Shown one piece after another: positions 7,286-57,932 of a stretch of 64,000 nt of DNA. The notes under the pieces were generated by a model. It worked only from the letters and a program-made list of their open reading frames with translations. It did no database searches and had not been told where the DNA came from. Position numbers and translations under genes: made by a program. Numbering within the stretch: position 1 is the stretch's first letter; every line of letters starts with the position of its first letter. Origin of the DNA: Alphaproteobacteria bacterium (lineage in GTDB: Bacteria > Pseudomonadota > Alphaproteobacteria > GCA-2731375); contig CBDEHK010000001.1 of assembly GCA_965238305.1 (NCBI GenBank), positions 3,034,226 to 3,098,225 on the forward strand, in the 5' to 3' direction.

Positions 7286-7423
7286 CCTGAAAAAACTCCT
7301 GTCGCGACTGCCCAGAATCGAGTGTTCAAATTATACGTATTTTCATCCAAGTCAAAACCATTTATCAGCGACCTAACTTGCTTAATCATTCAATTAAAGA
7401 CAAGAATACAATGTGAAACCTAA

Positions 7424-38406: not shown

Positions 38407-39225
38407 TTACGCAAAGACAATATCGCCAATCAGGAATGATCCAGCTGCCAAATCTTTCAGCAAGATATTGCCGTCTTCGCCAGCGGAAATAAGAATTCCG
38501 TCAGCGACATCGCTGACGACCACATCACTGGCGGTCAGTCCAACAAGGACAATACTGTCATTGCCATCGCCATAGTCGGTTACTTCGTCGGGGCCGCCAC
38601 CCTGTCCGAATATGAACATGTCATTGCCGCTGCCGCCGGTCAGAACATCGCCGCCATTGTTACCGTAAATGTAATCGTCGCCGGCGCCACCATCTATCGT
38701 ATCAACACCTTGTCCACCAAATATCGTGTCCGCGCCGTCGCCGCCGGATAACATGTCGGTACCCTGATTTCCGTATATCAAATCAGCGCCTGTCCCGCTG
38801 CCGCCATCGATTTGGTCGCTTCCCATATTACCGTACAGCACGTCATTGCCGATGCCACCATCGATGTCGTCATCGCTCTGGCCACCATAGACGGTATCAT
38901 TTCCGCTTTCGCCAAACAGCAAATCGTCTTTTTGATTACCGTAGATGATATCCGCATCGGCGCCGCCATATATTGTATCGACATCCATATTGCCATAAAG
39001 GACATCTTCGCCGGTATCACCGTAGATCAGATCGCTCTGCTGTCCGCCATAGATCCAATCGTTGCCATCGCCGCCATACATCAGGTCTTCACCTTGATTG
39101 CCATAGACAATGTCGGCCCCGGCCAGCGCCGAAATCGTATCGTCACCTTGGAAGCCATAAATGGAATCGTCCCCTGTGGTCCCAACCAACGGATCCGGAT
39201 TCTTAGTACCTTCAACAAGTGCCAT
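38407..39225 (-). CDS. hemolysin-type calcium-binding (RTX) repeat protein
   Basis: More than 20 GGxGxDxUx nonapeptide repeats. No N-terminal signal peptide. Confidence 0.85.
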
Positions 39226-39328
39226 AGTTGATGCTCCAATATTTGGTAAATTTCTTAATCAGCAATTCATCATGTTGGCAGGGTTTGCGATTGTCGCAAC
39301 AGATTTTGTATTCAAATTGGGTAAAATA

Positions 39329-39766
39329 TTAGCTGTTGCGGCGCTCGATCCGACGGAAAACGCCACTCGCAGTCATAACCAGGCGGTGCTTAACGCGCAA
39401 TTCCGCTTCAACGAATGTCAGTGTGCGGGTGGTTCGGGAGACGTTGCCAGTACCAACCAGCCAATCACCGACCCGAGCTGGACCGGCAAAATCCGTCGTC
39501 ATCCGAATGGTCACAGACGGTCCGCCTGAGGCTTCTCTGGCGGAACTTCCCAAGACGGTGTCCGCCATGCTCATCAACATGCCACCATGAACGATACCGG
39601 CATTATTAGTGTGTTTTGGTTGAATACGAATAGCGCGACAACACATCGGATTTTCGTCAAACTGAAATATCGGACCCAATAACCTGGAGAATTCGCTAGG
39701 TCCTATAATAGGAGAAAACCCGTTGGGTGCGTTCGCTGCCAGGATTTCTATTTCAGAACAATCCAT
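39329..39766 (-). CDS. PaaI-family hotdog thioesterase
   Basis: GIVHGGMLMSMADTVLG motif. Confidence 0.8.
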   Translation of the reverse strand: MDCSEIEILAANAPNGFSPIIGPSEFSRLLGPIFQFDENPMCCRAIRIQPKHTNNAGIVHGGMLMSMADTVLGSSAREASGGPSVTIRMTTDFAGPARVGDWLVGTGNVSRTTRTLTFVEAELRVKHRLVMTASGVFRRIERRNS

Positions 39767-39768
39767 CG

Positions 39769-40236
39769 CTAGTTTTGCGCCTTAGCGTCCTGAACGACGC
39801 GATCGCCAACACGGATCGCCAGGGTTTTCGAAAGGCCGCCGTTGATTTCGAGAACCATCTTTATCGGCATGCCTGGGCCTATTTCTTGGAGCGAATGAGG
39901 TGTTGCGTTGTGATGAATATATTCAATTTTTCCAGATTTATCTAAGAACAGAATATCCAATGGTATCAGAGTATTCCGCATCCAAAATTGAACTAATTGG
40001 GCATTGGGATAAACAAACAACATCCCCTGATCAAACGGCAATTCTCGCCGATGCATCAGACCAATTTCCCTGCTTTTTGATGTCGCTGCAATCTCGACAA
40101 AAAATGGTATCTCCGCCTTGGAAGTCGCTACCACGATTTTCCGTAAATCGCGTGCAAAGACATTTCCGCTGACAAAGACGAAAACTGCAAAAAACAAAAT
40201 GAAAGGTAATTGTTTACCTGGCTTAGTCACTGATTT
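39769..40236 (-). CDS. DUF192 (COG1430) protein with signal peptide
   Basis: Probable GTG start giving a signal peptide. C-terminal DUF192 core. Confidence 0.6.
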   Translation of the reverse strand, partial: KSVTKPGKQLPFILFFAVFVFVSGNVFARDLRKIVVATSKAEIPFFVEIAATSKSREIGLMHRRELPFDQGMLFVYPNAQLVQFWMRNTLIPLDILFLDKSGKIEYIHHNATPHSLQEIGPGMPIKMVLEINGGLSKTLAIRVGDRVVQDAKAQN

Positions 40237-40744
40237 CTGCGACCAAGGGTCCTTTGGATCCGCGACCGACGCGAATGCGAATTTCCTGACCTGGTTCCAA
40301 ATCATCTAGGCCAAAACGACGCAAGGTTTCAATATGGATGAAAATATCCTGACTGCCCTCGCCCTCAGTTACAAAACCATAACCCTTGGTCCGGTTGAAC
40401 CACTTCACCGTAACGTCAAGGGTATCGCCTTCCGCCTCGACCGCCGTGAAATTCGCATTACTACTGGGACGAGGTTCAGAACTTGGTTTGATAGCGGTGG
40501 AGATATCCAATTCGATTATCCGCTGTGCCTGAAGACCGCGGTCCCGTTTGACCGCTTCACAAACCACTGTTGTTCCTTCATGAACAAGCTGAACACCCGC
40601 TTCTCGCAAAACGGTTTTGTGTAGCAAAACGTCTCCTGCATCGGTTACGATAAAACCGTAACCTTTCACAGAATCGAACCATTTTACCGGACCACGTGCA
40701 ATAACGCCTTCTTCCGGATCTTCGTCTACTGATTCCATACTCAT
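40223..40744 (-). CDS. cold-shock protein with two cold-shock domains
   Basis: Two copies of VKWF(D/N)xxKGYGF(I/V). GGAAG RBS before the ATG at 40744. Confidence 0.85.
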   Translation of the reverse strand: MSMESVDEDPEEGVIARGPVKWFDSVKGYGFIVTDAGDVLLHKTVLREAGVQLVHEGTTVVCEAVKRDRGLQAQRIIELDISTAIKPSSEPRPSSNANFTAVEAEGDTLDVTVKWFNRTKGYGFVTEGEGSQDIFIHIETLRRFGLDDLEPGQEIRIRVGRGSKGPLVAEISD

Positions 40745-40931
40745 CGGGCTTCCAACTAACCTGCCGAAAAGAAACCTTAGCACGAATCACCAATTCTGGC
40801 CAAGTGAGGAATGCTAACAAACGTCTATAAGCCACTCAGATACTTTAATAATATTGAGGACTAGCAATATTATGCGCCGCTGATTAGTCTGGCGCCCAAT
40901 TAGCAGCCTATTTAGACCACAGTTTAAGGGG

Positions 40932-41486
40932 ATGGCGTTGAACGAGACGGCTGACATAAAGCGAGCCGACGATGAAGAGGCTAAAGCCCAAGCGATGCAG
41001 GGCCATTGGCTTCGTCACACTATCAGCCTCACTGTTTTGTTGACGATCGTTTGGTTGCTTTTATCCGGACATTACACGCCGCTTATTCTGTTTTTTGGCG
41101 CCGCTTCCGTTGCTTTGACCGTTTTTATTTCGATCCGCATGGATTTGTTGGATTTTGAAGGTTTGCCGTCCCATATCGCTTGGCGGACGGTAGTGTTTTA
41201 CTGGCCATGGTTGATTTTGGAGATCGTGTTGGCGAATGTTGACGTGATAAAGCGGATCCTTTCGCCGGAATTGGATATCCAACCGACGGTTTTTACTGCT
41301 GAGGCAAGTCAATCGACAGACCTTGGGATGGTCATCTACGCCAATTCGATAACCCTCACACCCGGTACTGTATCGATTGACCTTAATCCGGGTCAGATTG
41401 AAGTCCACGCCCTTTCGACGGCTGGTGCGGAAGGAATTCTTGCAGGCGAAATGGATCGCCGCTGCAGCGAATTGGACAAGGCTTAG
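40932..41486 (+). CDS. mrpE: Mrp/Mnh antiporter subunit E
   Basis: MnhE signature NSITLTPGT and TM helices. Confidence 0.8.
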   Translation: MALNETADIKRADDEEAKAQAMQGHWLRHTISLTVLLTIVWLLLSGHYTPLILFFGAASVALTVFISIRMDLLDFEGLPSHIAWRTVVFYWPWLILEIVLANVDVIKRILSPELDIQPTVFTAEASQSTDLGMVIYANSITLTPGTVSIDLNPGQIEVHALSTAGAEGILAGEMDRRCSELDKA

Positions 41487-41492
41487 ATCGCG

Positions 41493-41795
41493 ATGGAAGT
41501 ACAATTCGACAGTGCGATGTTTGATGTGACTGCGATTGCGCTCCTGATTGCAATGGGCTTGGCATTGGCGAGAGCATTTCTCGGACCGACGGTGTTTGAT
41601 CGGGTGCTGGCGGTCAATAGTTTCGGGACCAAAACCGTTGTGTTGATTGCCGTCCTAGGGTTTGTGATGGGTCGACCGGATTTTATGGACATCGCACTGA
41701 TTTATGCCTTGATGAACTTTATCGGAACGATTGCAGTATTGAAATTCGTCAAATATGGCGATTTTTCACGGGCCAGTGGAGATAACGAAGGATGA
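41493..41795 (+). CDS. mrpF: Mrp/Mnh antiporter subunit F
   Basis: About 100 aa with 3 TM helices in an MrpF pattern. Confidence 0.75.
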   Translation: MEVQFDSAMFDVTAIALLIAMGLALARAFLGPTVFDRVLAVNSFGTKTVVLIAVLGFVMGRPDFMDIALIYALMNFIGTIAVLKFVKYGDFSRASGDNEG

Positions 41796-42133
41796 GCTTT
41801 GTTGTTGACACGATATCTTGGTTGCTTCTGTTAACGGGGTCTTTCGTCGTCGTTATTGGCGCTTTTGGTCTGATACGAATGCCGGATTTCTACACCCGGC
41901 TGCACCCCGCTGGCGTGACGGACACGTTGGGCGCTGGCTTGATTATTCTTGGCCTTATCTTCCAAGTCGGCTTTAACTTAATCGCCGTGAAGCTTGTTCT
42001 GATTCTTCTTTTTCTATTTTTCACCAGTCCAACATCATCCCACGCAACAGCACGCGCGGCGATGGCGGACGGGCTCAAGCCACTACTTTCTGGCAAGAAA
42101 AATAAATCTTCGGATCAAGACACGTCGGATTAG
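41792..42133 (+). CDS. mrpG: Mrp/Mnh antiporter subunit G
   Basis: RMPDFYTRLHP motif. 4-nt overlap with mrpF. Confidence 0.8.
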   Translation: MSFVVDTISWLLLLTGSFVVVIGAFGLIRMPDFYTRLHPAGVTDTLGAGLIILGLIFQVGFNLIAVKLVLILLFLFFTSPTSSHATARAAMADGLKPLLSGKKNKSSDQDTSD

Positions 42134-42140
42134 TATGTAG

Positions 42141-42722
42141 ATGTTCATACAGTTCATCATAAATATAACCCTTTTGGCATTTATGGGCGCTACGGCAATC
42201 GCAATTCTGCGGGTACGCAACTTATTCGCCGTTGCCATGTTGTCCGGAATTTACAGCTTCCTGGCGGCAACTGTGTTTGTGTTATTAGATGCCGTCGATG
42301 TCGCCTTTACAGAAGCAGCCGTTGGTGCGGGCGTGTCGACAGTATTGATGTTAGGTGCATTGTCTCTCATCGGCGAAAATCGTGAAAAAGTATCCATCCA
42401 TACACCGATATTGCCCTTAATCGTGGTGACTATAACCGGCGTTGCGTTGCTTTATGGGGTTAGCGACATGCCCGCCTTCGCCGATCCGGAGGCCCCAGCG
42501 AATAAACATGTCGCGCCTTATTATTTGGAAGAAAGTAAAAAAGAAATCGGTGTTCCCAATGTGGTGACGTCTATTCTGTCGAGTTATAGAGGCTACGATA
42601 CGTTGGGTGAGACAGGGGTCATATTTACCGCCGGTATCGCTGTCATGTCGTTGCTGGGCGGAACTTTTTGGCGACGCCGGCGACCACGTAAAAAGGAAGA
42701 TCCAACTGGAGACGGAGGATGA
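42141..42722 (+). CDS. MbhD/MbhE-like (DUF4040 / MrpA C-terminal-like) membrane subunit
   Basis: TM protein with a VVTSILSSYRGYDTLGE region resembling MrpA-C/MbhD-E. Confidence 0.55.
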   Translation: MFIQFIINITLLAFMGATAIAILRVRNLFAVAMLSGIYSFLAATVFVLLDAVDVAFTEAAVGAGVSTVLMLGALSLIGENREKVSIHTPILPLIVVTITGVALLYGVSDMPAFADPEAPANKHVAPYYLEESKKEIGVPNVVTSILSSYRGYDTLGETGVIFTAGIAVMSLLGGTFWRRRRPRKKEDPTGDGG

Positions 42723-43156
42723 AGCATCATCGTGTCCTTCGCATCGTTTCAAAGTTTCTTATCCCGTTGATCATGATTTTTGGGCTGTATGTGCAGTTTC
42801 ATGGAGATTATGGACCTGGTGGCGGCTTCCAAGCTGGCGTGATATTTGCGGCCGGCATCATCCTCTATGCGCTTGTATTCGGACTGGATCATGCCATGAA
42901 AGTGGTCCCGCCCCGCATTATTACCAAGTTTGTCGCACTTGGATTGTTGTTGTACACCGGCGTCGGCATTGCCGGGATGCTGCTGGGCGGGGAGTTCTTG
43001 AATTACTCGGTTCTGGGCGCGACCCAACAAAGTGGTCAGCACCTTGGCATTTTATTGATCGAACTTGGCGTTGGCACCACAGTTGCCGCGACGATCACCA
43101 CGATATTCTATTATTTTGCTGGCTATCGCGGTTTGGGCGACGAGGATCAGCCATGA
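42719..43156 (+). CDS. mrpB: Mrp/Mnh antiporter subunit B
   Basis: GGGFQAGVI signature. 4-nt overlap with the upstream gene. Confidence 0.8.
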   Translation: MKHHRVLRIVSKFLIPLIMIFGLYVQFHGDYGPGGGFQAGVIFAAGIILYALVFGLDHAMKVVPPRIITKFVALGLLLYTGVGIAGMLLGGEFLNYSVLGATQQSGQHLGILLIELGVGTTVAATITTIFYYFAGYRGLGDEDQP

Positions 43157-43509
43157 ATTTGATCATCGCTCACTATAATTACTGGATCGTGATCCTGCTG
43201 ATGATGCTCGGTTTTTATATCGTCATCGCACAAGGTAATCTGATTAAGAAACTGATTGGTTTGAACCTCTTCCAAACCTCTGTCTTTCTGCTTTATATTT
43301 CTATCTCGAAAGTTGAAGGCGGAACCGCGCCGATTTTTGACGATCGTTTCAACGTCTTTTCCAACCCCCTGCCCCACGTTTTGATCCTAACGGCAATCGT
43401 TGTCGGTGTCGCAACCATGGCGGTCGGCCTCGCGTTGATTATACGCATTCGCGATGCCTATGGCACGATCGAGGAAGATGAGATCAATCGACAGGATGAT
43501 ACCCCATGA
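43153..43509 (+). CDS. mrpC: Mrp antiporter subunit C (NuoK-like)
   Basis: 118 aa with 3 TM helices and NuoK/MrpC conserved acidic positions. ATGA overlap with mrpB. Confidence 0.8.
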   Translation: MNLIIAHYNYWIVILLMMLGFYIVIAQGNLIKKLIGLNLFQTSVFLLYISISKVEGGTAPIFDDRFNVFSNPLPHVLILTAIVVGVATMAVGLALIIRIRDAYGTIEEDEINRQDDTP

Positions 43510-44987
43510 TTGTCGATAATCTTCCTGCCATATTGATCATTCTGCCGCTGCTGGGGGCGCCGGTTTGCTTGTTATTAGGGCGCGGTGATTGGTCTTGGGG
43601 GCTCAGCCTGATCGTGACCTGGCTTTCATTTGCGGTCGCCATCGCGCTTTTAATTATCGTCTGGAACGGCGAAGTGATCGAATATCCATTGGGTGGATGG
43701 TCGGCCCCATGGGGCATCGTTTACCGGCTGGACCCGGCGAACGCATTCGTCCTCCTTATCGTCTCCGCTATCAGTGCAATACTACTACCTTACTGTTGGC
43801 GCAGTGTGCAGCGGGAAGTACCGGAAAATCGGCAACATCTATTTTATTCGCTCTATCTACTGTGCCAGACCGGTCTCATGGGTATCGCCATCACCGGCGA
43901 CGCATTTAACGTTTTTGTATTCTTGGAAATTTCCTCACTCTCAAGTTATGCCTTGATTGCACTCGGCAGTCATCGCAAGGCCCTGACGTCCGCTTTCACT
44001 TATCTGATTATGGGGACGATTGGCGCCACCTTCATCCTGATTGGCATTGGCTTGATCTACATGATGACCGGCACCCTTAACATGACTGATATGCATGACA
44101 AGATGGCAGCTATTGGGGAGAAAGCACCAATAATGGCGGCCTTTGCATTCATTACCGTTGGTGTGGTGCTGAAACTTGCGCTCTTCCCACTGCATCTATG
44201 GATGCCTAACGCCTATGCTTATGCGCCAAGTGCGGTCTCTGCCTTTATCGCAGCGACGGCAACTAAAGTGTCGATCTATGTGCTGCTGCGGTTCGTCTTT
44301 ACGGTGTTTGGTCAGGATTTGGCTTTCGGGGCCGCGCCCCTCAATTATGTCCTGATGGTGCCAGCGATCATTGCTATGTTTGCCGGCTCTTTGGTGGCGA
44401 TCTTTCAGACCGACATCAAACGCATGTTAGCTTATTCCAGTGTGGCGCAAATTGGTTACATCGTCCTCGCCATCAGTTTAGTCAGTCTCGGCGGCATAAC
44501 GGCCAGTTTCCTGCATATCTTCAATCACGCTTTGATGAAAGCTGCCTTATTTGGCGTTATGGGTTGCATATTTTTTCGCCTATCGTCGGTGCGATTAAAC
44601 GACATGGCTGGTTTGGCGAAAGAAATGCCGTTGACCTTCGCCTGTTTCCTAATTGGTGGGATGAGTTTAATCGGCGTGCCGCTAACCGGTGGATTTATTT
44701 CAAAATTCTATCTTATCAAAGCAACTTTGGAACTTGATTTTTGGTGGCTTAGCTTCTTGATCCTAGCCTCCAGTTTGCTCGCAGTCATCTATATCTGGCG
44801 CATTGTTGAAGTGATGTATTTCAAACCGGCCCCTGAAGGCCGGGTGCCAGTGAAAGAAGCGCCACTATCAATGCTGATCCCGACCATTATCCTGGCGGCG
44901 GCAAATATTTATTTTGGAATCGAGACTAGCTTGCCCATAGGCGTATCGGAAGCGGCAGCTAAAGCATTGTTAGGAGGGGCATGGTGA
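43506..44987 (+). CDS. mrpD: Mrp antiporter subunit D (NuoN/M-like antiporter-like subunit)
   Basis: Proton_antipo_M fold (LHLWMPNAYA...). Confidence 0.85.
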   Translation: MIVDNLPAILIILPLLGAPVCLLLGRGDWSWGLSLIVTWLSFAVAIALLIIVWNGEVIEYPLGGWSAPWGIVYRLDPANAFVLLIVSAISAILLPYCWRSVQREVPENRQHLFYSLYLLCQTGLMGIAITGDAFNVFVFLEISSLSSYALIALGSHRKALTSAFTYLIMGTIGATFILIGIGLIYMMTGTLNMTDMHDKMAAIGEKAPIMAAFAFITVGVVLKLALFPLHLWMPNAYAYAPSAVSAFIAATATKVSIYVLLRFVFTVFGQDLAFGAAPLNYVLMVPAIIAMFAGSLVAIFQTDIKRMLAYSSVAQIGYIVLAISLVSLGGITASFLHIFNHALMKAALFGVMGCIFFRLSSVRLNDMAGLAKEMPLTFACFLIGGMSLIGVPLTGGFISKFYLIKATLELDFWWLSFLILASSLLAVIYIWRIVEVMYFKPAPEGRVPVKEAPLSMLIPTIILAAANIYFGIETSLPIGVSEAAAKALLGGAW

Positions 44988-46450
44988 ATAGCGCGATCCT
45001 CATGCTCTGGGCGATTGCCATACCGTTGATTGCAGCGGTCATTATTCCGCTTTTCCACGAACATCCTAATCGCCGTGAAGGCGTTACTTTGATTGCAACG
45101 GCGATCTTATTTGCAGTCGTTTTGGTGTTGATAACCGGCGATAACCGGTTTGAGTTCGCCCGCATAGAACTTATTGAGCCGATCCCCAATATTGCCATCG
45201 CTTTCCGTTTGGAACCATTGGGGGCGATTTTTGCCGCTGTCGCGTCATTATTATGGATCGTCAGTTCATTGTTCGGGATCGGTTATATGCGCGGCAATAA
45301 TGAGCCGCGACAGACCCGTTTTTACATTGCATTTGCGATCGCCATCGGCAGCACCATGGGCATTTGTTTTGCCGGCAATCTGCTGACTTTGTTCATCTTC
45401 TACGAAGCGCTGACGATTTCGACTTATCCTCTGGTTGCCCATCACAAGAACGATGAAGCGGTTAAGTCCGGCCGTACCTATCTCGGCATTTTGATGGGCA
45501 CATCAATTGGGTTTTTGCTGTTCGCGATAGTTATCACTTATGTCGAAACCGGGACGTTGGATTTTGTCGACGGCGGCATCTTGTCCGGACGGGTGACGCC
45601 GTTCACAGGAAGTGTGCTGTTGTTGTTATTCATGTACGGCGTCGGTAAAGCTGCCTTGATGCCGCTCCACAGATGGTTGCCGGCGGCGATGGTCGCGCCG
45701 ACCCCAGTGAGCGCACTTTTGCATGCCGTTGCGGTCGTGAAAGCGGGTGTTTTCTCCGTCGTGAAAATTGCCGTCTATGTCTTTGGCGTCGATTATCTAC
45801 GCGAACTTTCAGCTTCTTCGATCATTCTTTATGCCGCTGGTTTCACTATTATTATCGCTTCCATTGTTGCGCTTCGTCAGGACAATTTGAAACGACGCTT
45901 GGCCTATTCGACGATCAGTCAGCTTTCCTATGTCATTTTGGCCATGTTCATCCTGACGCCGATGTCGACAACTGGCGCGGCGTTACATATTGCTGTCCAC
46001 GCCTTCGGCAAAATCACCCTTTTTATGGCAGCCGGCGCGATCTATACAGCAGCCCACAAAACTCTGGTCAGTCAGTTGGACGGAATTGGTAAACGTATGC
46101 CTTGGACGATGACGGCCTTTGCCGTCGGATCCCTTTCGATGATCGGCGTGCCGCCGGCTGCGGGATTTCTGAGTAAATGGTATATGTTGCTCGGCGCGTT
46201 AGAGAGCGAACAGATTTTCGCTATTGGCGTCATCGTGATTTCGACATTGCTGAATGCGGGATATTTTCTACCGGTCGTTTATGCTGCATTTTTGAAACCG
46301 GAAAAGATCGATAGCAATCATCCCGTGGAACATGGCGAAGCGCCAATATTTATTGTCATCGCCCTAACCGCAACCGCGATCCTTACAGTCTTACTGTTTC
46401 TGTTCCCTGGATTTGTCTTGGAACTGGCAAAAAATGTCGCCGGGGGGTAG
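44981..46450 (+). CDS. second MrpD/NuoM-like antiporter-like subunit
   Basis: LHRWLPAAMVAPTPVSALLHAVAVVKAGVF is a NuoM/MrpD hallmark. Confidence 0.85.
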   Translation: MVNSAILMLWAIAIPLIAAVIIPLFHEHPNRREGVTLIATAILFAVVLVLITGDNRFEFARIELIEPIPNIAIAFRLEPLGAIFAAVASLLWIVSSLFGIGYMRGNNEPRQTRFYIAFAIAIGSTMGICFAGNLLTLFIFYEALTISTYPLVAHHKNDEAVKSGRTYLGILMGTSIGFLLFAIVITYVETGTLDFVDGGILSGRVTPFTGSVLLLLFMYGVGKAALMPLHRWLPAAMVAPTPVSALLHAVAVVKAGVFSVVKIAVYVFGVDYLRELSASSIILYAAGFTIIIASIVALRQDNLKRRLAYSTISQLSYVILAMFILTPMSTTGAALHIAVHAFGKITLFMAAGAIYTAAHKTLVSQLDGIGKRMPWTMTAFAVGSLSMIGVPPAAGFLSKWYMLLGALESEQIFAIGVIVISTLLNAGYFLPVVYAAFLKPEKIDSNHPVEHGEAPIFIVIALTATAILTVLLFLFPGFVLELAKNVAGG

Positions 46451-46461
46451 AGGATATAGTC

Positions 46462-46728
46462 ATGTCAGATAACTCGTTGCATGAAGACAAACACTGGCTT
46501 ATCCGCCCACAAATCATCAGGTTATTGTGGCGAATTGGCCTATTTGTATTATTGCTTACCGTCCTCGCTGCCCTGACATATGAAGCGCATCCCTATTTCG
46601 GCTACGATGGCTGGTTCGCCTTTTATGCAACTTTCGGCTTTTTTTCCTGCGTGGGCATGGTGTTTTTCGCTAAATTCCTAGCTGTCTTTTTGAAACGCCC
46701 AGACGACTATTACGAGAAGGATCAATAA
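46462..46728 (+). CDS. small two-TM membrane protein of unknown function
   Basis: 88 aa, positioned between the large antiporter-like genes. Confidence 0.4.
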   Translation: MSDNSLHEDKHWLIRPQIIRLLWRIGLFVLLLTVLAALTYEAHPYFGYDGWFAFYATFGFFSCVGMVFFAKFLAVFLKRPDDYYEKDQ

Positions 46729-46731
46729 GCG

Positions 46732-48411
46732 ATGCCGATCCCTCCCGCACTCATTATGTTCCTGGGCGCATTGATCATCGCTTTGTTGCGCGGGCCCCAG
46801 CGCAGTATCGTGGCGATGATTATCCCGATCCTGACACTGGCGACCATTTGGACCGTGCCGGATGGGGAAGTCATCAGTTTCACCTTCCTGGAGTATATTA
46901 TTGTCCCCTTGGAAGGGGATAAATTGTCGCGGTTGTTTGCCAGTATTTTCTCCCTCATGGCCTTCGCCGGTGCAATGTTCGCAGCAAAACAAAAAGAGCG
47001 GATGGAATTGCCAGCGGCGTTTGTCTATTCCGGGGCCGCGATCGGGGTCAGTTTAGCGGGCGATCTGATCACGATGTTCGTCTTTTGGGAGATTATGGCA
47101 GTCGCCTCGACGTTGGTGATCTGGTCGGCCCGTACCAAACAAGCCGAAAGCGCATCGTTGCGTTACGTCTTAATTCATCTGTTTGGTGGTGTGATCCTGA
47201 TGATCGGTGTTGTCGGGCAAGTGCTGGAAACAGGATCGACGGAATTTGGCGCCGTTCATCTGGAAAGTTTTTCTAGTTGGTGCATGCTGGTGGGTTTCCT
47301 GATCAATGCCGGCGCTCCGCCCTTCTCCGCTTGGCTTCCGGATGCTTATCCAGAAGCGTCCTTTTCTGGCATGGTGTTTCTATCCGCTTTTACGACAAAA
47401 ACCGCGGTTTATGTATTGATCCGAGCTTTTCCAGGCACGGAAGTCTTAATCCCCATCGGCGTCTTTATGATTTTCTATGGCATCATTTATGCGCTACTGG
47501 AAAATGATATGCGGCGAATATTGGCCTATTCCATTATCAATCAGGTCGGCTTCATGGTCACAGGAATTGGCATCGGCGGAGAGATGGCGCTGAATGGTGC
47601 GGCGGCCCATGCCTTTACCCACATAATATATAAAGCCTTGTTGTTGATGTCGGCGGGGTCGGTGATGATGATGACCGGCGGGGTGCGGAAATGTTCCAGT
47701 CTCGGTGGCTTATTTCAGTCCATGCCCTATACCGCAACAATGGGCATAATCGGGGCGTTGGCAATTTCCTCATTTCCTTTTACGTCCGGATTTGTGTCGA
47801 AGTCGATGATCACGCAGGGTGCGATTGATGCCCACATGATGTGGGTTTGGCTGGCTTTGGCCGCCGCATCAGCCGGTGTCTTCCTGCATGCGGGCATTAA
47901 ATTCCCCTGGTTTGTCTTCTTCCAGAAAGATTCCGGCTTGCGTCCGTCGGAGCCGCCGTGGAGCATGCGGATCGCCATGGGGCTATTTGCCTTTCTTTGC
48001 ATCGCCATAGGCGTTTACCCCGATCCCCTTTATGCATTGCTGCCTTATGCCGTAAATTACGTACCTTATACAGTTGGTCACGTGGTCGAGATGCTGCAGC
48101 TCTTATTATTCTCAGGCCTCGCCTTCTTCCTGTTTTTGCCATATATGAAGCGAACGTTGACACTTACCCTCGATTTGGACTGGTTTTATCGTCGTTTGTT
48201 CAAGAACCTCTTTAAGGATGCGGCGGCCCAGGCAGGTAAAGCTCATGCGACCTCCTGGACCGATGGTGAACTGCGGTTGAGGCAGTTGATTGCGCGAATA
48301 TCCCGCCATCACGGCGAACAGGGCATATTGGCCCGGACCTGGCCGACCGGCAGTATGGTGCTATGGGCGGCCGCATTATTAGGCGGCTATCTAATCCTTT
48401 ATTATCGGTGA
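46732..48411 (+). CDS. MrpA/NuoL-like antiporter-like subunit (short form)
   Basis: AWLPDAY motif. 559 aa, so it lacks a long MrpA C-terminal extension. Confidence 0.85.
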   Translation: MPIPPALIMFLGALIIALLRGPQRSIVAMIIPILTLATIWTVPDGEVISFTFLEYIIVPLEGDKLSRLFASIFSLMAFAGAMFAAKQKERMELPAAFVYSGAAIGVSLAGDLITMFVFWEIMAVASTLVIWSARTKQAESASLRYVLIHLFGGVILMIGVVGQVLETGSTEFGAVHLESFSSWCMLVGFLINAGAPPFSAWLPDAYPEASFSGMVFLSAFTTKTAVYVLIRAFPGTEVLIPIGVFMIFYGIIYALLENDMRRILAYSIINQVGFMVTGIGIGGEMALNGAAAHAFTHIIYKALLLMSAGSVMMMTGGVRKCSSLGGLFQSMPYTATMGIIGALAISSFPFTSGFVSKSMITQGAIDAHMMWVWLALAAASAGVFLHAGIKFPWFVFFQKDSGLRPSEPPWSMRIAMGLFAFLCIAIGVYPDPLYALLPYAVNYVPYTVGHVVEMLQLLLFSGLAFFLFLPYMKRTLTLTLDLDWFYRRLFKNLFKDAAAQAGKAHATSWTDGELRLRQLIARISRHHGEQGILARTWPTGSMVLWAAALLGGYLILYYR

Positions 48412-48845
48412 TGGTGTCGACAGTGGTCGCCTACCTGAATTTTCACATCTTTGCGGCGTTGCTGAATGGGTTGGCACTAGGTTCAATGATATTTTTCGCC
48501 GCCATCGTGACGCCAAGTGTTTTTAAGGCTTTGGAAGGCGAGCATCGAAGTCGTTATCTGGAAACAATATTTCCGCTCTATTTTCGCGCGATGGCCGGAT
48601 TGGAAGCTATTGCCGGGATATTGATTATCTATCGGATAGAAGGTTGGGCCTTGTTAGCCGTTGCCGCCGCATTCATGTTTTCCGACCAAGCCCTGCGGCC
48701 AACCATTAATCGGCTTCGCGCCGGCCATTATGCTGGCGATGCGGACACAAGTGTGCGATTTAAGAAGATGCACCGCCTCAGTGTGCTCATCAATCTGGCG
48801 CAAATTTTTATCTCTCTGATTGTTTTTTTCCGTTTAGCTGTCTAG
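48411..48845 (+). CDS. four-TM membrane protein (DUF4149-like), translationally coupled
   Basis: Its ATG overlaps the upstream TGA stop (tgATGg arrangement), so the two genes share 1 nt (48411). The 144-aa hydrophobic start is inferred inside listed ORF 48363-48845. Confidence 0.5.
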   Translation: MVSTVVAYLNFHIFAALLNGLALGSMIFFAAIVTPSVFKALEGEHRSRYLETIFPLYFRAMAGLEAIAGILIIYRIEGWALLAVAAAFMFSDQALRPTINRLRAGHYAGDADTSVRFKKMHRLSVLINLAQIFISLIVFFRLAV

Positions 48846-48875
48846 AACCAAACCTCAACTCAATTCGAAGGAATT

Positions 48876-49502
48876 TTGACAATGGATATGACCGGCGAAT
48901 ACCGCATCAAAGCCAGCCGCGAACAGGTTTGGGCCGCCCTCAATGATCCAGAAATCCTGAAACAGAGCATACCCGGTTGCGATAGTCTCGAACAAACCTC
49001 TGATAATGCTTTTGCCGCCACTGTGACAACCAAAGTAGGTCCGGTGAAAGCCAAATTCAAAGGCGAAGTCGAGCTTAGCGATATCGACCCGCCCAATGGC
49101 TATACAATCTCCGGTGAAGGCAAAGGCGGCGCTGCGGGATTTGCCAAAGGCGGTGCAAAAGTAAAACTTGAGCAAGACGGCAGCGAAACTATTCTTTCTT
49201 ATGAAGTTAACGCCAATGTTGGCGGTAAAATGGCTCAGTTGGGTGCTCGCCTCATCGATGGTACGGCAAAAAAACTATCGGCGGAGTTTTTCCAGAAATT
49301 TGCCGAACTAGCGGAAGCGTCAGAAGAAGCTGCGGCAGCAGATATGAAGCCAGAAGTAGTGGCACCAGCAGCAGAACAAATAACCGATGAACACGTGCCG
49401 CTGGAAATGCGTGAAAGCGCAAACTGGAATGGCTTGCCATCCTGGATATGGATTGGTGGAGCTATTGTCGCGGTCGTTATCGTGTTGTGGCTCGCGACCT
49501 AA
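48876..49502 (+). CDS. coxG: CoxG (SRPBCC) with C-terminal transmembrane anchor
   Basis: SRPBCC/CoxG fold. C-terminal LPSWIWIGGAIVAVVIVLWLAT helix. Confidence 0.8.
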   Translation: MTMDMTGEYRIKASREQVWAALNDPEILKQSIPGCDSLEQTSDNAFAATVTTKVGPVKAKFKGEVELSDIDPPNGYTISGEGKGGAAGFAKGGAKVKLEQDGSETILSYEVNANVGGKMAQLGARLIDGTAKKLSAEFFQKFAELAEASEEAAAADMKPEVVAPAAEQITDEHVPLEMRESANWNGLPSWIWIGGAIVAVVIVLWLAT

Positions 49503-49675
49503 CCTTTATGTGATATCTCCCGCTAATTTAATGTCTATGCTTGACGTCGCGCCCACATTCTTCGAGACTGTTAGGCAAGGAGCGACTTTTGAGGGCAATG
49601 AAGCGTTTTCATGCTATTGATTAAGTCTAATAATCTCCGACTTGAAAGCTAAAACAAAAAAAAGGGAGGATCGGT

Positions 49676-50143
49676 ATGCCATCGGTTTCTATGACCGTGA
49701 ACGGGCAATCCGTCACGAAAGACGTAGAGGAACGCACACTCCTCGTTCAATTTCTTCGCGAAACACTTGCTCTCACCGGCACCCATGTCGGTTGCGATAC
49801 CAGTCAATGCGGCGCCTGTGTCGTCGACGTGAATGGGAAAGCGATTAAATCATGTACGGCGCTAGCGGTCATGAATGATGGGGCGGACGTGACCACGATC
49901 GAAGGGCTTGCCAATGGTGCTGAATTGCATCCAATGCAGGAAGCTTTCCGCGATAATCATGGCTTGCAATGCGGTTTCTGCACACCGGGTATGGTGATGA
50001 CCGGGATCGACATGGCCAATCGCCATGCCAGCCTGGACGAAGCAACTGTACGCCAGGAATTGGAAGGTAATATCTGCCGCTGCACCGGTTACCACAATAT
50101 TGTCAAATCGATATTGGCGGGCGCTGAAGCGATGCGCGGTTAG
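49676..50143 (+). CDS. coxS: Mo-hydroxylase small subunit (2x [2Fe-2S])
   Basis: CDTSQCGAC ferredoxin-type motif and CRCTGY second-cluster motif. AGGGAGG RBS. Confidence 0.9.
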
Positions 50144-50187
50144 ACCAAACCTACGGAATTCAACCATTCAAAAAGGGGAGAAATGCC

Positions 50188-52542
50188 ATGAATGCCGAAA
50201 CGGGTATTGGCGCTTCTGTCAAAAGAGTAGAAGACAAACGTTTCCTCACTGGCAAAGGCCGGTATACAGACGACATTAATATACCCGGTCAATCATATGC
50301 CTATTTCGTGCGCTCGCCGCACGCTCACGCCACTTTGAATTCTATCGACATAAGTGCAGCGACGGCCTTAGCAGGTGTGTTGGCTGTCTTCACCGGCGAT
50401 GATTTGGCTGCCGATGGTATCGGTCCGCTGGTTTGCGGTGCGGCGTTGACCGGTACGGACGGTGAAGGCCAAAAAGCGCCGGCCCATCCGGCGCTGGCGC
50501 AAGGCAAAGTGCGCTATGTCGGTGACCATGTTGCGGTGGTAATTGCCGAAACCTTGGCACTGGCCAAGGATGGCGCAGAACTGGTCGATGTCGATTACGG
50601 CGTATTGCCAAGTACAACCGATCTTGCAAGCAGCGATCAGGACGGCAAACCGCAGATTCATGAGGAAGCACCGAACAACATCTGCATCGATTGGGAATTT
50701 GGCGAGAGGGCTGATGTTGATGCAGCCATGGCCGGCGCCCATCATGTTGCGGAATTGGAACTGGTCAACAATCGCATGGTGACCAATCCGGTGGAACCGC
50801 GGGCTGCTGTGGGTGACTATAACTCCGGCACCGAAGAGTTGACTTTGTACGTCACGACACAAAACCCGCATGTCCATCGCTTGGTATTTTCAGCCTTCAA
50901 CGGTCTTGCGCCCGAACATAAATTGCGGGTCGTCGGCCCGGATGTCGGTGGTGGATTCGGTGTCAAGATATTTACCTATTCAGAAGAACTGGTTTGTGCC
51001 TGGGCTGCCCGCAAAATCGATCGTGCGGTCAAATGGACGGCGGAGAAATCCGAGACTTTCATGTCCGATGCACATGGCCGAGATCATGTCACAAAAGTAA
51101 GACTGGCTATGGACGAAAATGGCAAGTTCCTTGCCCTGCATTGTCAGACTAAGGCCAACATGGGTGCTTATCTACAACTCTTTTCGGTGACTGTCCCGAC
51201 CCTGTTCCACGCTTTCTTGTTAGCAGGGCCCTACACCACGCCGGCAATACTTTGCGAAATTCGTAATATGTTTACCAATACTTCACCCGTAGATGCTTCG
51301 CGCGGCGCCGGCCGGCCAGAAGCGACTTACATCCTGGAGCGGATTGTCGACGTCGCGGCACGAGACTTGGGCCTGGATCCTGCGGAACTGAGACGACGCA
51401 ACTTCATCGCCGCTGATGCTTTTCCATATCAAACGCCGGTCGTGCATCTTTATGATTCAGGTGACTACGACGCCGCGTTGGATAAGGCGATTGAAATTGC
51501 TGACTATGCGGGATTGTCGGCGCGGCAAGAAGAAGCTAAAGGCCGCGGCAAACGTCGGGGAATTGGTTTATCGTCCTATATCGAAGCTTGCGGTGTTGCG
51601 CCATCAGCTGCGGTGGGCTCTTTGGGCGTCGGCGTCGGACTTTGGGAATCTGCGCAAGTCCGATTTAATCCAACGGGCAATGTTCAGGTTTTCACTGGTA
51701 CCCATTCACATGGTCAAGGCCATGAGACGGCCTTTGCCCAACTTATCAACGATCAACTCGGCGTGCCGATTGAGAATGTTGATGTGATCCACGGCGATAC
51801 CGCCCGCACCCAATTTGGTATGGGGACCTATGGTTCTCGTTCCCTTGCGGTTGGCGGTGTAGCGATTACCAATGCCTGTCAAAAAATTATTGATAAGGGC
51901 AAGAAAATTGCCGCTCATCTAATGGAAGCGGCAGAAGAAGACGTCGAATTCGCAGGCGGCAACTTCACAGTAGCCGGTACCGACAAATCGGTAAATATAG
52001 CCGAAGTCGCATTTGCCGCCTATGTGCCACATAACTATCCAGAGGGCGTCGAACCTGGACTAGATGAAAACGCCTTTTTCGATCCTTTGAACTTCTCCTT
52101 CCCCGCCGGCACACATATTTGTGAAGTGGAGGTGGATCCGGATACCGGGAAAGTGGAGATTGTGGATTATACAGCGGTCGACGATTTTGGCCGTTTGATC
52201 AATCCCATGATCGTTGCCGGGCAAGTTCATGGCGGTATCGCTCATGGTGTCGGACAGGCGCTACTGGAAGTCTGTAAATACGACAGTGAAAGCGGTCAGT
52301 TGCTGACTGGTTCCTTGATGGATTACGCGATGCCCAGGGCAGACAATGTGCCAAACTTCAAAGTCGACTACGCGCCAACAGAGCCGGCCCATAACCCGCT
52401 TGGTGTTAAGGGCTGTGGTGAAGCAGGTGCGATTGCGGCGCCGCCTGCGGTCATTAACGCCATCGCCAACGCTTTGGGTGTGAAGCACGTCGACATGCCG
52501 GCGACGTCGGAAAATGTCTGGCGTGCGGCACAGGGCGCTTGA
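50188..52542 (+). CDS. coxL: Mo-hydroxylase large subunit (form II CoxL-like / xanthine dehydrogenase family)
   Basis: 784 aa molybdopterin-binding subunit. Active-site loop ASRGAGRPE. Confidence 0.9.
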
Positions 52543-52574
52543 GTTTAGGGCTTAGATTAAAGGAGCAATGAAAG

Positions 52575-53369
52575 ATGTATAACTTCTCCTATCATCGTCC
52601 GGCCAGTGTGGCGGACGCTGTTAATGCCCTTAACGGGGCAGAAGATGGAAAATTTGTCGCTGGTGGTCAAACTTTGCTGCCGACCATGAAACAACGTTTG
52701 GCAGCGCCCAGTGACTTAGTCGATCTATCCGGCGTGGCGGACCTGACTGGCATCACAGTAGCCGATGGTAACGTGACCATTGGGGCCATGACCTGCCATG
52801 CGGACGTCGCTAATTCGGCAGATGTGCAGAATGCGATACCGGCGTTGGCAGGTTTGGCTGGGCGGATTGGTGATCCGGCGGTGCGCCACAAGGGTACGCT
52901 TGGTGGCTCGATCGCAAATGCAGATCCGGCGGCTGATTATCCGGCCGCGGTTTGTGCGTTAAGCGCGACTGTCAACACCAACAAACGGTCGATTGCTGGT
53001 AATGAATTTTTCACCGATCTTTTCGAAACCGCGTTGGAGGAAGATGAAATCATTACCAGTGTTTCCTTTCCTGTTCCCGACGCCGCCGCCTATATGAAGT
53101 TCGAAAACCCGGCGTCGCGATATGCAATTGTCGGTGTGTTCGTTGCTAAAACATCCGGTGGTGTGCAAGTCGGCGTCACCGGTGCAACTTCACATGCCCA
53201 TCGCGGTCCGAGGCTGGAAGCGGCGTTGAATGCCAACTTCTCGCCAGATGCTGTCGATAGTGTCGAACTGCCGGTTGATATTATGAATTCAGACATTCAT
53301 GCCAGTTCTGAATATCGGGCCCATTTGGTTAAGGTCATGGCCAAACGCGCCGTCGCCGCTTGCGGTTAA
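52575..53369 (+). CDS. coxM: Mo-hydroxylase FAD-binding medium subunit
   Basis: FAD_binding_5 and CO_deh_flav_C fold. 264 aa. Confidence 0.85.
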   Translation: MYNFSYHRPASVADAVNALNGAEDGKFVAGGQTLLPTMKQRLAAPSDLVDLSGVADLTGITVADGNVTIGAMTCHADVANSADVQNAIPALAGLAGRIGDPAVRHKGTLGGSIANADPAADYPAAVCALSATVNTNKRSIAGNEFFTDLFETALEEDEIITSVSFPVPDAAAYMKFENPASRYAIVGVFVAKTSGGVQVGVTGATSHAHRGPRLEAALNANFSPDAVDSVELPVDIMNSDIHASSEYRAHLVKVMAKRAVAACG

Positions 53370-53388
53370 GACGCGGCTCGAAAAATAT

Positions 53389-53416
53389 CGAACAGGGGGA
53401 GGCCTGCCTCCCCCTG
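53389..53416 (+). terminator. GC-rich perfect hairpin after coxM
   Basis: CAGGGGGAGG-cctg-CCTCCCCCTG 10-bp stem. Weak T tract, so it may function as a terminator or an RNA-stability element. Confidence 0.45.
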
Positions 53417-53457
53417 TTCGCCGCGCCCTATACGCAATATCTTCTTCGGAAATAGCT

Positions 53458-55206
53458 TTACTTGATTTTGCCCTGGCGCAGGGCATTTTCAATATACTGT
53501 TCTATCGTGATTGTCCGACTGTTCACGCGAAAACTGACATGATCTCTGTGCCGATGGGAAGACAATTGACTAGCTGGCAAATAGACAAAATAGTTTTTAT
53601 CAACTAGATCGGTTGACCTATAGTCGAACAAGTTAATACCATTAAAATGCTCACATTGATCACGAGACGAGTAAATTCTACACAATGTCATCGCCAGATC
53701 ATTCAGAAGGACGACATCATCTATTAGCTTTATGTTCTTCTGTTTTTGATCGAAATTTTTGATCATTAAGAGCGGTTGATAGCGGTTCAACCCCCAAAAT
53801 TTATGGCCATTGATGGAAATATTGCCAGGAGGCTGATCAAAAAAATAACCTGGTTTGCCATGATCAGATTTCAGCACCACCACCGACTTATCATAAATTC
53901 CTAATTTCTTTAGCTTTTTGAGGAAACCTCCAAATTGACGGAGCGCGCACTTTGCTTGCGCCAGCATACCCACTTGATTTTGGTGCTTGACATTCCACTG
54001 ATGATTGCCAATTTCACAGTTTTCTTTCGTTCTTATTGGAAAATGTGTATGGGTAAAATGTACCATACGAACAGATTCCTCCAACTTTTCCGATGTTTTT
54101 AATCCCGCCAGAAATTCATTAAAAAGTTTGTTTTCGTAAACGGTGCGCCGCGGTTCGAAAATCGTGCGCCGTCGATCGAAAATAGCTTCATATCTTGGGA
54201 TTTCCAGAATTTTTCTTTTTATTTCTCTAAGGTTTGTATATTTGCCGAATATGCATGTTCCAATTCTGCATTGGGCCATATTTATAAGATCAAGCAGGCT
54301 ATCGATGTTGTTCGGATATTTGGCCAGGTCAAATTGATTGATAGTTTGTTCTCGATCAACAAATCGAGCGTATAAGCCTAATGCATAAGCATTTTCAGAA
54401 ACATTCAATACAGCATAATTTTTGAAGCTTGCTTGCTCAGAATAGTAATCTACTATTTGGTCTACATTGGGCCCGATTTTTTCGAAATCTTGAACACCGA
54501 ATAGCTCGCCCATTATTGACGATTCTGTTGCTGGGCTTTGCGCAACAGCATTGGTGAAAAATAAGAAATCTTTCAGTGAATTCTTGAATTCTGGCGATGT
54601 CCCAAGGGCCTCGCGAATCACTACTCCCGGCAGACCGTCAAAACTAATGACAAATACATTCTGTTTAGTCGAAACCGAAAGAAAATCGCTGATATCGACG
54701 GAGTCCTCACTTTGCAAGGCGTGAAGCATCGGAAGATAAAATAAACTCGATATTGATACAGTGCTCACAAAAATGAGCGAGACTAATTTGATACCAGCAT
54801 AGCGCCAAACCCCAAATGTGATGACCGCGCATATAATTACCGCGAGGCTAAATTTTTGCGGATTAACTGGCGGCGATAGAGCTGAAAACATACCAGCACT
54901 ATCGATGATCGGTAGTAAATATCCTGTAATAACTACAAATAATGAAAAATAGACTACTATTACCCGGACAAACGTTAAGGAGTTTTCGTTATTTTTTATT
55001 AAAATAACCGAACATAAATAAAGTATTACTAGGCAGATAAAGAATACAATAAACACCGGCAGAGAAATATGTAGAAAATAGGTTAAATCGACACCAATAA
55101 TTTCAGTGTAATTATTCTTCCACACAATTAATGGAACGCCGATAAATAAATTAAAACTTAGAACAAATAATAAGCAGATGGAAAATTTTTCATTACCGAT
55201 ATTCAT
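53458..55206 (-). CDS. multi-TM membrane protein with C-terminal sulfatase/alkaline-phosphatase-superfamily domain (LtaS/EptA/OpgB-like)
   Basis: The N-terminal third is hydrophobic with several TM helices. C-terminal VVLKSDHGKP sulfatase-type motif. Strongly AT-rich coding sequence. Confidence 0.6.
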   Translation of the reverse strand: MNIGNEKFSICLLFVLSFNLFIGVPLIVWKNNYTEIIGVDLTYFLHISLPVFIVFFICLVILYLCSVILIKNNENSLTFVRVIVVYFSLFVVITGYLLPIIDSAGMFSALSPPVNPQKFSLAVIICAVITFGVWRYAGIKLVSLIFVSTVSISSLFYLPMLHALQSEDSVDISDFLSVSTKQNVFVISFDGLPGVVIREALGTSPEFKNSLKDFLFFTNAVAQSPATESSIMGELFGVQDFEKIGPNVDQIVDYYSEQASFKNYAVLNVSENAYALGLYARFVDREQTINQFDLAKYPNNIDSLLDLINMAQCRIGTCIFGKYTNLREIKRKILEIPRYEAIFDRRRTIFEPRRTVYENKLFNEFLAGLKTSEKLEESVRMVHFTHTHFPIRTKENCEIGNHQWNVKHQNQVGMLAQAKCALRQFGGFLKKLKKLGIYDKSVVVLKSDHGKPGYFFDQPPGNISINGHKFWGLNRYQPLLMIKNFDQKQKNIKLIDDVVLLNDLAMTLCRIYSSRDQCEHFNGINLFDYRSTDLVDKNYFVYLPASQLSSHRHRDHVSFRVNSRTITIEQYIENALRQGKIK

Positions 55207-55773
55207 GTGATATTCATACTAACTTTATTCGACTTGGCATTTACGTCCAAATTGTATGCCGATAACAGCTTCGGGCACCAATGAATTTGGAATAATAACG
55301 ACGAGCTATAGAAAATCAACTGCACGAATAAAGGCGTTTTCTTGGTACTCAACGCTGAAGCGGTACTACTGAAATGTAGTCGTGGACAGATTTCACTCCG
55401 ATGGTGGTAGTAATACATAATCGAATCTCCCCGAAAACCATAATTACCAACAGACCTTGTTTCATGACCTGGCTATTTTCCGAACCCTATCGCTTGTTTT
55501 ATTGTCCATTCCTAATTTATCGGATTTTGAGCTCACGAATTATTCTTCGCTCAGTGCTTCTCTATCATTTGCAGCTGTTAGGCTATGAATTTCGGGCGAA
55601 AAGCGCTGGTCAATCAGCCGGTTTGTGGCGTAATATTTTGCCGTTGCAAAATAGACATTAACTGAGATGAAAATGCTCGACAATCGTCGAGAAGTTGTCG
55701 ATAGACTTTAACAGCGCCGGTCTTTCTGTTTTGAGAATGGGGTGCTTCGCTTTCCCCAACCTTTCGCTGGATC

Positions 55774-57930: not shown

Positions 57931-57932
57931 CC

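Follow-up and report, generated by a model that had tools for sequence, protein, structure and literature searches.

Probably two autonomous modules: an Mrp-type antiporter cluster beside a form II-like CoxSLM molybdenum hydroxylase cluster in an alphaproteobacterial genome

Does an Mrp-type membrane module that lies directly upstream of genes for a CoxSLM-type molybdenum hydroxylase form a single respiratory complex with that enzyme? The question is raised by a stretch of 64,000 nucleotides (nt) from an alphaproteobacterium (GenBank assembly GCA_965238305.1, contig CBDEHK010000001.1, positions 3,034,226 to 3,098,225; the window hereafter), in which 15 co-directional plus-strand open reading frames (ORFs) span 40932–53369. 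The original prediction described this run as an Mrp-like module continuing into coxG-coxS-coxL-coxM, and it put forward an ion-translocating Mo-hydroxylase supercomplex as one explanation. If true, an Mrp-coupled Mo-hydroxylase would represent a respiratory ion pump of a new class, bearing on the evolution of complex I-like enzymes. Here, we propose, with a probability of about 0.8, that two autonomous modules of known kinds stand side by side and that their adjacency is lineage-restricted synteny in a small marine alphaproteobacterial group. We prefer this reading because each module is kept widely without the other, because the Mrp–cox linkage varies among close relatives, and because a promoter-like motif precedes coxS with or without Mrp.

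The 15 genes were confirmed by the ORF listing and by Pfam and NCBIfam scans, and Pfam agreed with the predicted identities, E-F-G-(MbhD/E)-B-C-D-D-small-A'-DUF4149 followed by coxG-S-L-M. The first 10 of them encode the Mrp module:

40932..41486, plus strand: mrpE, 184 amino acids (aa); Pfam MNHE, 98 bits; first in the order (tblastn) in the loci that reach that far upstream.
41493..41795, plus strand: mrpF, 100 aa; Pfam MrpF_PhaF, 71 bits.
41792..42133, plus strand: mrpG, 113 aa; Pfam PhaG_MnhG_YufB, 95 bits; 4-nt overlap with mrpF.
42141..42722, plus strand: MbhD/MbhE-fusion subunit, 193 aa; Pfam MbhD and MbhE; NCBIfam NF009159, 203 bits (cut-off 141).
42719..43156, plus strand: mrpB with an MnhB domain, 145 aa; Pfam MnhB, 101 bits; 4-nt overlap with the MbhD/E gene.
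43153..43509, plus strand: mrpC, NuoK-like, 118 aa; Pfam Oxidored_q2, 84 bits; 4-nt overlap with mrpB.
43506..44987, plus strand: mrpD1, antiporter-like (MrpD/NuoN-like), 493 aa; Pfam Proton_antipo_M, 224 bits; top NCBIfam matches are MrpD-type models and NuoN.
44981..46450, plus strand: mrpD2, antiporter-like, 489 aa; Proton_antipo_M, 194 bits, and weak Proton_antipo_N; NCBIfam NF006236, 576 bits.
46462..46728, plus strand: 88-aa protein with two hydrophobic stretches; no Pfam or NCBIfam match; found by tblastn between D2 and D3 in 79 of 80 loci from several phyla.
46732..48411, plus strand: mrpD3, antiporter-like (MrpA-N/NuoL-like), 559 aa; Proton_antipo_M; NCBIfam NF009310, 675 bits (cut-off 564).

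The packing of the genes shifts where the two modules meet. Between mrpE and D3, neighboring genes are −7 to +11 nt apart, including the four 4-nt overlaps, and D3 overlaps the DUF4149 gene by 1 nt (TGATG), the start of the latter being ATG 48411 and not 48363. The gap between DUF4149 and coxG is 36 nt, and the next one, between coxG and coxS, is 173 nt long, AT-rich, and non-coding; 44 nt separate coxS from coxL and 32 nt separate coxL from coxM. Gaps of 0–45 nt had been predicted for the whole run, which is right for the tight coupling of the Mrp and DUF4149 genes and wrong for the coxG–coxS gap. The predicted 30-nt gap in front of coxG, with the gene starting at TTG 48876, also needs correction, as the start is ATG 48882, which gives a 206-aa product found in a public protein collection.

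The module contains every canonical Mrp domain: A N-terminal, A C-terminal, B, C, D, E, F, and G. The MbhD/E fusion, which matches an NCBIfam model titled "DUF4040 domain-containing protein" (NF009159), corresponds to the C-terminal domain of MrpA and to the Pyrococcus furiosus protein called MrpB (PMC8415708). D3 exceeds the curated cut-off of a model named "Na(+)/H(+) antiporter subunit D" (NF009310), and its fold was modeled with AlphaFold2 from 23 homologues (pLDDT 73, pTM 0.77). The C-terminal part of the model has a transmembrane (TM) helix (448–474), a long lateral-type helix (491–527), and a terminal TM helix (540–558), and its best matches in the Protein Data Bank (PDB) by Foldseek are MrpA (7qru_A and 6z16_A) and NuoL (8e9g_L). 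Because the model ends in this way and matches MrpA and NuoL best, D3 is assigned, at the level of the predicted fold, as the equivalent of the MrpA N-terminal domain, which bears out the A' label given to the 559-aa protein earlier. Glu120, Lys223, His293, Lys301, Lys357, and Lys390 are invariant among the 23 homologues in a sequence alignment of D3 alone. Beyond the canonical parts, the module has one additional antiporter-like subunit (D2) and the 88-aa protein, which is probably a conserved, unannotated subunit of this Mrp type. As judged from its genes, 40932–48411 probably encodes a stand-alone "group 3"-type Mrp (CPA3) monovalent cation/proton antiporter.

The gene order is not a sign of a respiratory arm. 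The original prediction likened E-F-G-B-C-D to the membrane arms of Mbh/FHL-type complexes, but mrpEFGBB'CD is also the order of the stand-alone group 3 Mrp of P. furiosus (PF1147-53), a Na+-coupled antiporter for pH homeostasis that has no redox partner (PMC8415708), and that interpretation was rejected. "Irregular" group 3 gene orders are covered in a review (PMC5703873). The cluster shares with the P. furiosus system the order E-F-G-B(MbhD/E fusion)-B'-C-D and the lack of an adjacent redox module; it differs by the addition of D2, of D3 with its MrpA/NuoL-like lateral helix, and of the 88-aa protein. It thereby includes an "energy input" part, MrpA-N, that is missing from the P. furiosus Mrp, and it is bacterial. 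All domain equivalents of the group 1/2 Mrp systems (mrpABCDEFG of Bacillus pseudofirmus and Anoxybacillus flavithermus; PDB IDs: 7qru and 6z16) are present, D3 being nearest to MrpA and D1 to MrpD-type models. Unlike in those systems, MrpA is split into D3 and MbhD/E, the order is permuted, and an extra antiporter-like subunit and a small subunit are found. Two genome annotations describe what appears, by gene content and order only, to be the same type of cluster: "MrpEFGBBCDD" of the Solemya velum symbiont (PMC4287430) and "Mnh/MrpEFGBCD1D2D3" of Verruconatronum alginivorum (PMC13274419), both annotated as multisubunit Na+:H+ antiporters. A biochemical study of a ten-gene, three-antiporter-subunit Mrp variant was not found in the literature search, nor was a relevant paper on CoxG together with Mrp.

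Homologous membrane-arm subunits also occur in MBH, MBS, FHL, complex I, and the CODH-Mch-Mnh3 cluster of Thermococcus onnurineus (CODH, carbon monoxide dehydrogenase), and the presence of three antiporter-like subunits is a further likeness to complex I. Unlike these systems, the window cluster is without NuoH/MbhM-like and NuoB/D-like subunits and has no conserved redox linkage. In agreement with what had been predicted, no NuoB/C/D/I or hydrogenase domain was found by Pfam in the 15 proteins, and no NuoH domain was found in them either. None of the 11 membrane proteins matched PF00146 (NuoH) at E ≤ 0.01, and domain scans of 38407–60561 found no NuoB/NuoD-type hydrogenase-like module. To our knowledge, every known Mrp-derived redox pump has both NuoH/MbhM-like and NuoB/D-like coupling subunits.

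The conservation of the Mrp module was analyzed using the D3 alignment, with which one genome per species was scanned. At least 600 matching stretches were obtained, 589 of them encoding relatives, and the best 80 loci at the species level, with 10-kilobase (kb) flanks, were searched by tblastn with the 15 window proteins. These loci come from Alpha-, Beta-, and Gammaproteobacteria and Gemmatimonadota; the nearest relatives of the window are metagenome-assembled genomes of Rhodospirillaceae, Alphaproteobacteria, and Thalassospiraceae. Among the best 80 loci, nearly all that extend far enough keep the order E-F-G-MbhDE-B-C-D1-D2-88aa-D3. Four of the 80 have cox genes within 10 kb (L014, L022, L058, and L071; loci are numbered throughout), all Alphaproteobacteria and none contiguous, so at least 76 of the 80 sampled species have no cox gene nearby. 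In the four loci, the two modules are separated by one opposite-strand gene (L014), by two opposite-strand ORFs (L058), by a ChaN-type gene (L071), or by ~6 kb (L022). The cox genes of L058 (13233–18371), L071 (8831–10751), and L014 (8497–9762) form a run (coxG)-coxS-coxM, and coxL was not detected in these three clusters; in L058, the ORFs after coxM match the coxD/coxE/XdhC genes in size. ORF clustering gave no conserved flanking partner of Mrp either: the flanking families are each limited to 10 or fewer of the 55–68 loci with enough flank, and the commonest is an upstream DUF192 gene (10 of 55 loci), which is also present in the window and in L087. With no common flanking family and cox rarely nearby, the Mrp module is therefore an autonomous unit without a conserved redox partner.

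The reciprocal analysis was centered on the window CoxL, with which metagenomes were scanned to give 80 loci that were then searched by tblastn. The run coxG-coxS-coxL-coxM is kept in dozens of loci, down to ~57% CoxL identity. Among the ~22 loci with at least 3 kb upstream of coxG/coxS, Mrp (D3 and DUF4149) was found in one, L148, where a 1309-aa TPS-domain gene and a TetR gene lie between D3-DUF4149 and coxG, which are 5 kb apart. Elsewhere, the upstream neighbors of coxG are unrelated: a 608-aa protein (nine loci) or an ABC ATPase (four loci). The original prediction had named the absence of the linkage from other genomes as evidence against it, and the neighborhood analysis largely found such absence, with co-occurrence in four of 80 Mrp loci and one of ~22 CoxL loci.

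Even among close relatives the arrangement varies. A contiguous Mrp-DUF4149-coxG-SLM layout is confined to the window, L082/L083 (D3 identity 86%), and L087 (70%), and in these relatives it extends to Mrp-DUF4149-coxG-SLM-DEF. In L081 (84%), Mrp-DUF4149-CoxG is followed by OsmC and mer genes, and coxSLM is absent at the locus, which suggests its replacement by mobile DNA; the segment in the coxSLM position (L081, 12791–16423) comprises OsmC, genes without assignment, and a mer set (MerT, an HMA protein, and MerR). In L084–L086 (71%), an FBP aldolase gene follows Mrp, with neither DUF4149 nor cox. The divergent cold-shock gene upstream of mrpE is likewise syntenic in L081 and L084–L087, and because this gene and the upstream DUF192 gene are also kept in relatives, the pattern points to general retention of synteny in the region. 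In L087, a metagenome contig, mrpD1 was called as two pieces (6772–8264; 291 and 187 aa), reflecting a frameshift or an assembly error.

The enzyme genes and the genes beyond them are as follows:

49676..50143, plus strand: coxS, 155 aa, two [2Fe-2S] domains; Pfam Fer2 and Fer2_2; strong Shine–Dalgarno sequence AAGGGAGG.
50188..52542, plus strand: coxL-type molybdopterin subunit, 784 aa; Pfam Ald_Xan_dh_C, MoCoBD_1, and MoCoBD_2.
52575..53369, plus strand: coxM, FAD subunit, 264 aa; Pfam FAD_binding_5, 159 bits.
53458-55206, minus strand: membrane protein, 582 aa, weak Sulfatase-family match; 38% GC compared with ~50% around it.
55774-56703, plus strand: coxD-like AAA protein (Pfam/NCBIfam, as for the four below).
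56704-57930, plus strand: CoxE-like VWA protein.
57927-58253, plus strand: XdhC_CoxI.
58250-58936, plus strand: XdhC_C.
58933-60561, plus strand: MocA-like NTP transferase.

The cox cluster does not end at 53369, where the predicted run stops, but goes on to 60561 after an interrupting minus-strand gene. This low-GC gene (53458–55206) looks like a recent insertion that splits the cluster, because L082 and L087 have the maturation genes, coxD onward, directly after coxM. Together, 48882–53369 and 55774–60561 would constitute a form II-like CoxSLM Mo-hydroxylase cluster with its maturation genes. The best PDB match of CoxL is the CoxL of Mycobacterium smegmatis (8uem_A, 618 bits), and its scores are below every NCBIfam cut-off (TIGR02416, 629 bits vs 991). 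Form II enzymes are defined by the order coxS-coxL-coxM and the motif AYRGAGR (PMC13203968). The window has this gene order, but its active-site loop reads ASRGAGR, so the predicted form II assignment is better worded as form II-like. At the position of the form II tyrosine, the CoxL subclade (L082–L167) has AYRGAGR in 41 loci, ASRGAGR in 20 including the window, ACRGAGR in 12, and AERGAGR in three. A form I Mo-Cu CO dehydrogenase was considered and rejected, as the CSFR motif is absent and TIGR02416 is below its cut-off. CO appears an unlikely substrate from the sequence, because the cysteine of the [MoCu] site is absent and the TIGR02416 score is so far from 991. The cluster resembles the M. 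smegmatis Mo-CODH (PMC12202499; PDB IDs: 8uem and 8uds) in its CoxS/L/M set, its three-part CoxG, and its CoxD/CoxE/XdhC-type genes. Unlike that system, it has the order coxSLM and not coxMSL, and the loop ASRGAGR and not AYXCSFR.

Two genes lie between the antiporter and the enzyme:

48411..48845, plus strand: DUF4149 membrane protein, 144 aa; Pfam DUF4149, 41 bits; start overlaps the D3 stop codon (TGATG).
48882..49502, plus strand: coxG, 206 aa, with an SRPBCC domain, an acidic/Pro-rich linker, and a C-terminal TM helix; Pfam COXG (PF06240), 130 bits.

A profile built from 13 DUF4149 homologues, mostly on contigs shorter than 2 kb, found the family in L081, L082, L083, L087, and L148 only, always directly after D3, and in none of the 80 broader Mrp loci or the other cox loci. 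DUF4149 is thus a clade-specific gene attached to the 3' end of the mrp operon and translationally coupled to it. CoxG matches the crystal chain of M. smegmatis CoxG (8uds_D, E = 1e-9, residues 3–146). Its tail, ...PAAEQITDEHVPLEMRESANWNGLPSWIWIGGAIVAVVIVLWLAT, has a hydropathy maximum of 2.66. The predicted C-terminal TM helix is therefore present, but it is a general feature of CoxG in its quinone-shuttle function and not specific to Mrp-linked loci; orthologues with the same tail and no Mrp nearby include L088, L100–L104, L108–L116, L120, L124, L125, L129, and L164, and the helix was rejected as a locus-specific feature. Kropp et al. described this architecture of CoxG (an SRPBCC domain, a flexible linker, and a C-terminal TM helix), showed that the protein binds quinone, and proposed that it shuttles quinone from the membrane to Mo-CODH (PMC12202499). 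By analogy, such shuttling would suffice, by a known mechanism, to connect a soluble Mo-hydroxylase with the respiratory chain. CoxG homologues can reportedly serve non-CODH enzymes (PMC11962113).

The remaining evidence concerns transcription. Two signals were found:

49540..49568, plus strand: promoter-like element TTGACG-N17-GAGACT, 136 nt upstream of the coxS ATG; a conserved block in the gap alignment.
53389..53420, no strand assigned: strong terminator-like hairpin separating coxM from the convergent minus-strand gene; stem of 14 bp, 10 of them G-C.

The coxG–coxS gaps of five loci align with a mean identity of 49% and have one conserved block, CTTGAC(C/G)-N17-nAnACT. A search of the 260 nt in front of coxS found TTGAC[CG]-N17-nAnACT in 22 of 46 distinct loci, the majority of which have no Mrp, compared with ~0.08 expected by chance; in the 5.04 Mb of sequence collected here, counting both strands, the pattern has 33 matches, a background of 0.0017 per 265 nt. 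In the matching loci, given here in two rows, the motif lies 79–185 nt upstream of coxS:

Window, L022, L058, L082, L087, L088, L100, L101, L104, L108–L110.
L113, L114, L116, L120, L121, L124, L126, L129, L148, L164.

The spacing is fixed, the spacer is variable, and the halves are −35-like (TTGAC) and −10-like (A2/T6). The element therefore fits a sigma-70-type promoter, and it is probably the promoter of coxSLM. The generic promoter and terminator scan was at the shuffled expectation (22 vs 23.3; 23 vs 22.0) and is uninformative except for the hairpin after coxM, which the scan reported on the minus strand and whose stem is a near-perfect palindrome. Rfam gave no match in 39000–58000 at E ≤ 1, including any Moco (molybdenum cofactor) or other riboswitch; over the whole window at gathering scores, it found nothing in the region and five tRNAs elsewhere, no more.

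Here, we propose how the two modules may work. The Mrp antiporter would be driven by the proton motive force, exporting Na+ or K+ in exchange for H+ as in the characterized Mrp systems, and it would need no redox module. The membrane-tethered CoxG would draw quinone from the membrane and present it to the soluble enzyme, as in M. smegmatis, and electrons from the substrate would pass via the quinone pool into the ordinary respiratory chain. Transcription from the mrp promoter is likely to read through into coxG, and coxSLM probably has, in addition, a promoter of its own in the 173-nt gap. Several observations weigh against such independence. Mrp and cox lie within 10 kb of each other in eight alphaproteobacterial lineages (the window, L082/83, L087, L148, L014, L022, L058, and L071), which exceeds what random placement predicts; the lineages share ancestry, however, and cannot be counted as independent. 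The L081 locus lacks coxSLM but retains CoxG behind Mrp-DUF4149, so that CoxG or DUF4149 could have a role tied to Mrp. No terminator-like hairpin is present from D3 to coxM, including the DUF4149–coxG and coxG–coxS gaps, and the RNA of the latter gap folds into no significant structure (z = 0.19); all 15 genes could thus be co-transcribed.

The last of these points leads to an explanation that we regard as unlikely but worth stating, and that is in line with the weaker alternative of the original prediction, an antiporter co-regulated with the oxidase: one transcription unit that serves a shared physiological programme, for example under alkaline, saline, or energy-limited conditions, without a physical complex. 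The mrp promoter would then drive DUF4149, coxG, and coxSLM by read-through. The genes are co-directional, the first strong hairpin comes only after coxM, the 36 nt in front of coxG leave little room for a promoter, and contiguity is kept in L082/83 and L087 at D3 identities of 70–86%. Against this, the promoter-like motif in front of coxS is common to loci without Mrp, and in L014, L058, L071, and L148 opposite-strand or unrelated genes come between the two modules, which in most genomes are not linked at all; co-transcription in itself would not prove functional dependence. A different explanation starts from L081, the locus that retains Mrp-DUF4149-CoxG without coxSLM. DUF4149 and the CoxG-like SRPBCC protein might be clade-specific Mrp accessories, for example in lipid or quinone binding, independent of the downstream CoxSLM. 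The position of DUF4149 directly after D3 in five of five loci that have it accords with this, as does the reported service of CoxG homologues to non-CODH enzymes. We nevertheless consider it quite improbable, since L148 keeps DUF4149 with D3 and coxG with coxSLM 5 kb away, dozens of Mrp-free loci have CoxG immediately before coxS, neither DUF4149 nor CoxG occurs in the 80 broader Mrp loci, and the mer genes of L081 are consistent with secondary replacement.

The supercomplex envisaged at the outset, in which the CoxG TM helix, DUF4149, or both would dock CoxSLM on Mrp and the three antiporter-like subunits would translocate ions at the expense of substrate oxidation, now seems barely credible. 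It can draw on the contiguity in the window, L082/83, and L087, on the translational coupling of DUF4149 to D3 with coxG next in line, and on the presence, as in complex I, of three antiporter-like subunits, one with a lateral helix. However, NuoH/MbhM-like and NuoB/D-like coupling subunits are missing, the two modules are kept separately, and the linkage is rare. In at least 76 of the 80 sampled species, the same ten-gene Mrp has neither cox genes nearby nor another conserved partner; cox clusters with a TM-anchored CoxG are widespread without Mrp; and the linkage tolerates intervening and opposite-strand genes. In addition, coxSLM has its own conserved promoter-like element, and the quinone-shuttle role of CoxG is established and sufficient (PMC12202499). 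A more specific version, in which mrp, DUF4149, and coxG are co-transcribed and DUF4149 and the CoxG helix hold the Mo-hydroxylase at Mrp, giving a direct or local coupling of oxidation to cation/proton translocation, is equally hard to credit; if true, it would be a redox-linked Mrp without a NuoH/NuoB/NuoD interface. The reading as two autonomous modules is retained.

Two further features of the window were recorded. A minus-strand gene at 38407–39225 encodes a 272-aa protein consisting largely of RTX calcium-binding nonapeptide repeats (10 matched stretches), and the segment 32001–34000 has a GC content of 58%, compared with ~50% in the rest of the window.

The value of the locus lies in its parts. 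The ten-gene Mrp variant combines three antiporter-like subunits with an unannotated 88-aa subunit, and the form II tyrosine is variable (Tyr, Ser, Cys, or Glu) within one CoxL subclade. In many marine bacteria, the promoter-like motif precedes the coxSLM unit, and it is a candidate promoter of form II-like units.

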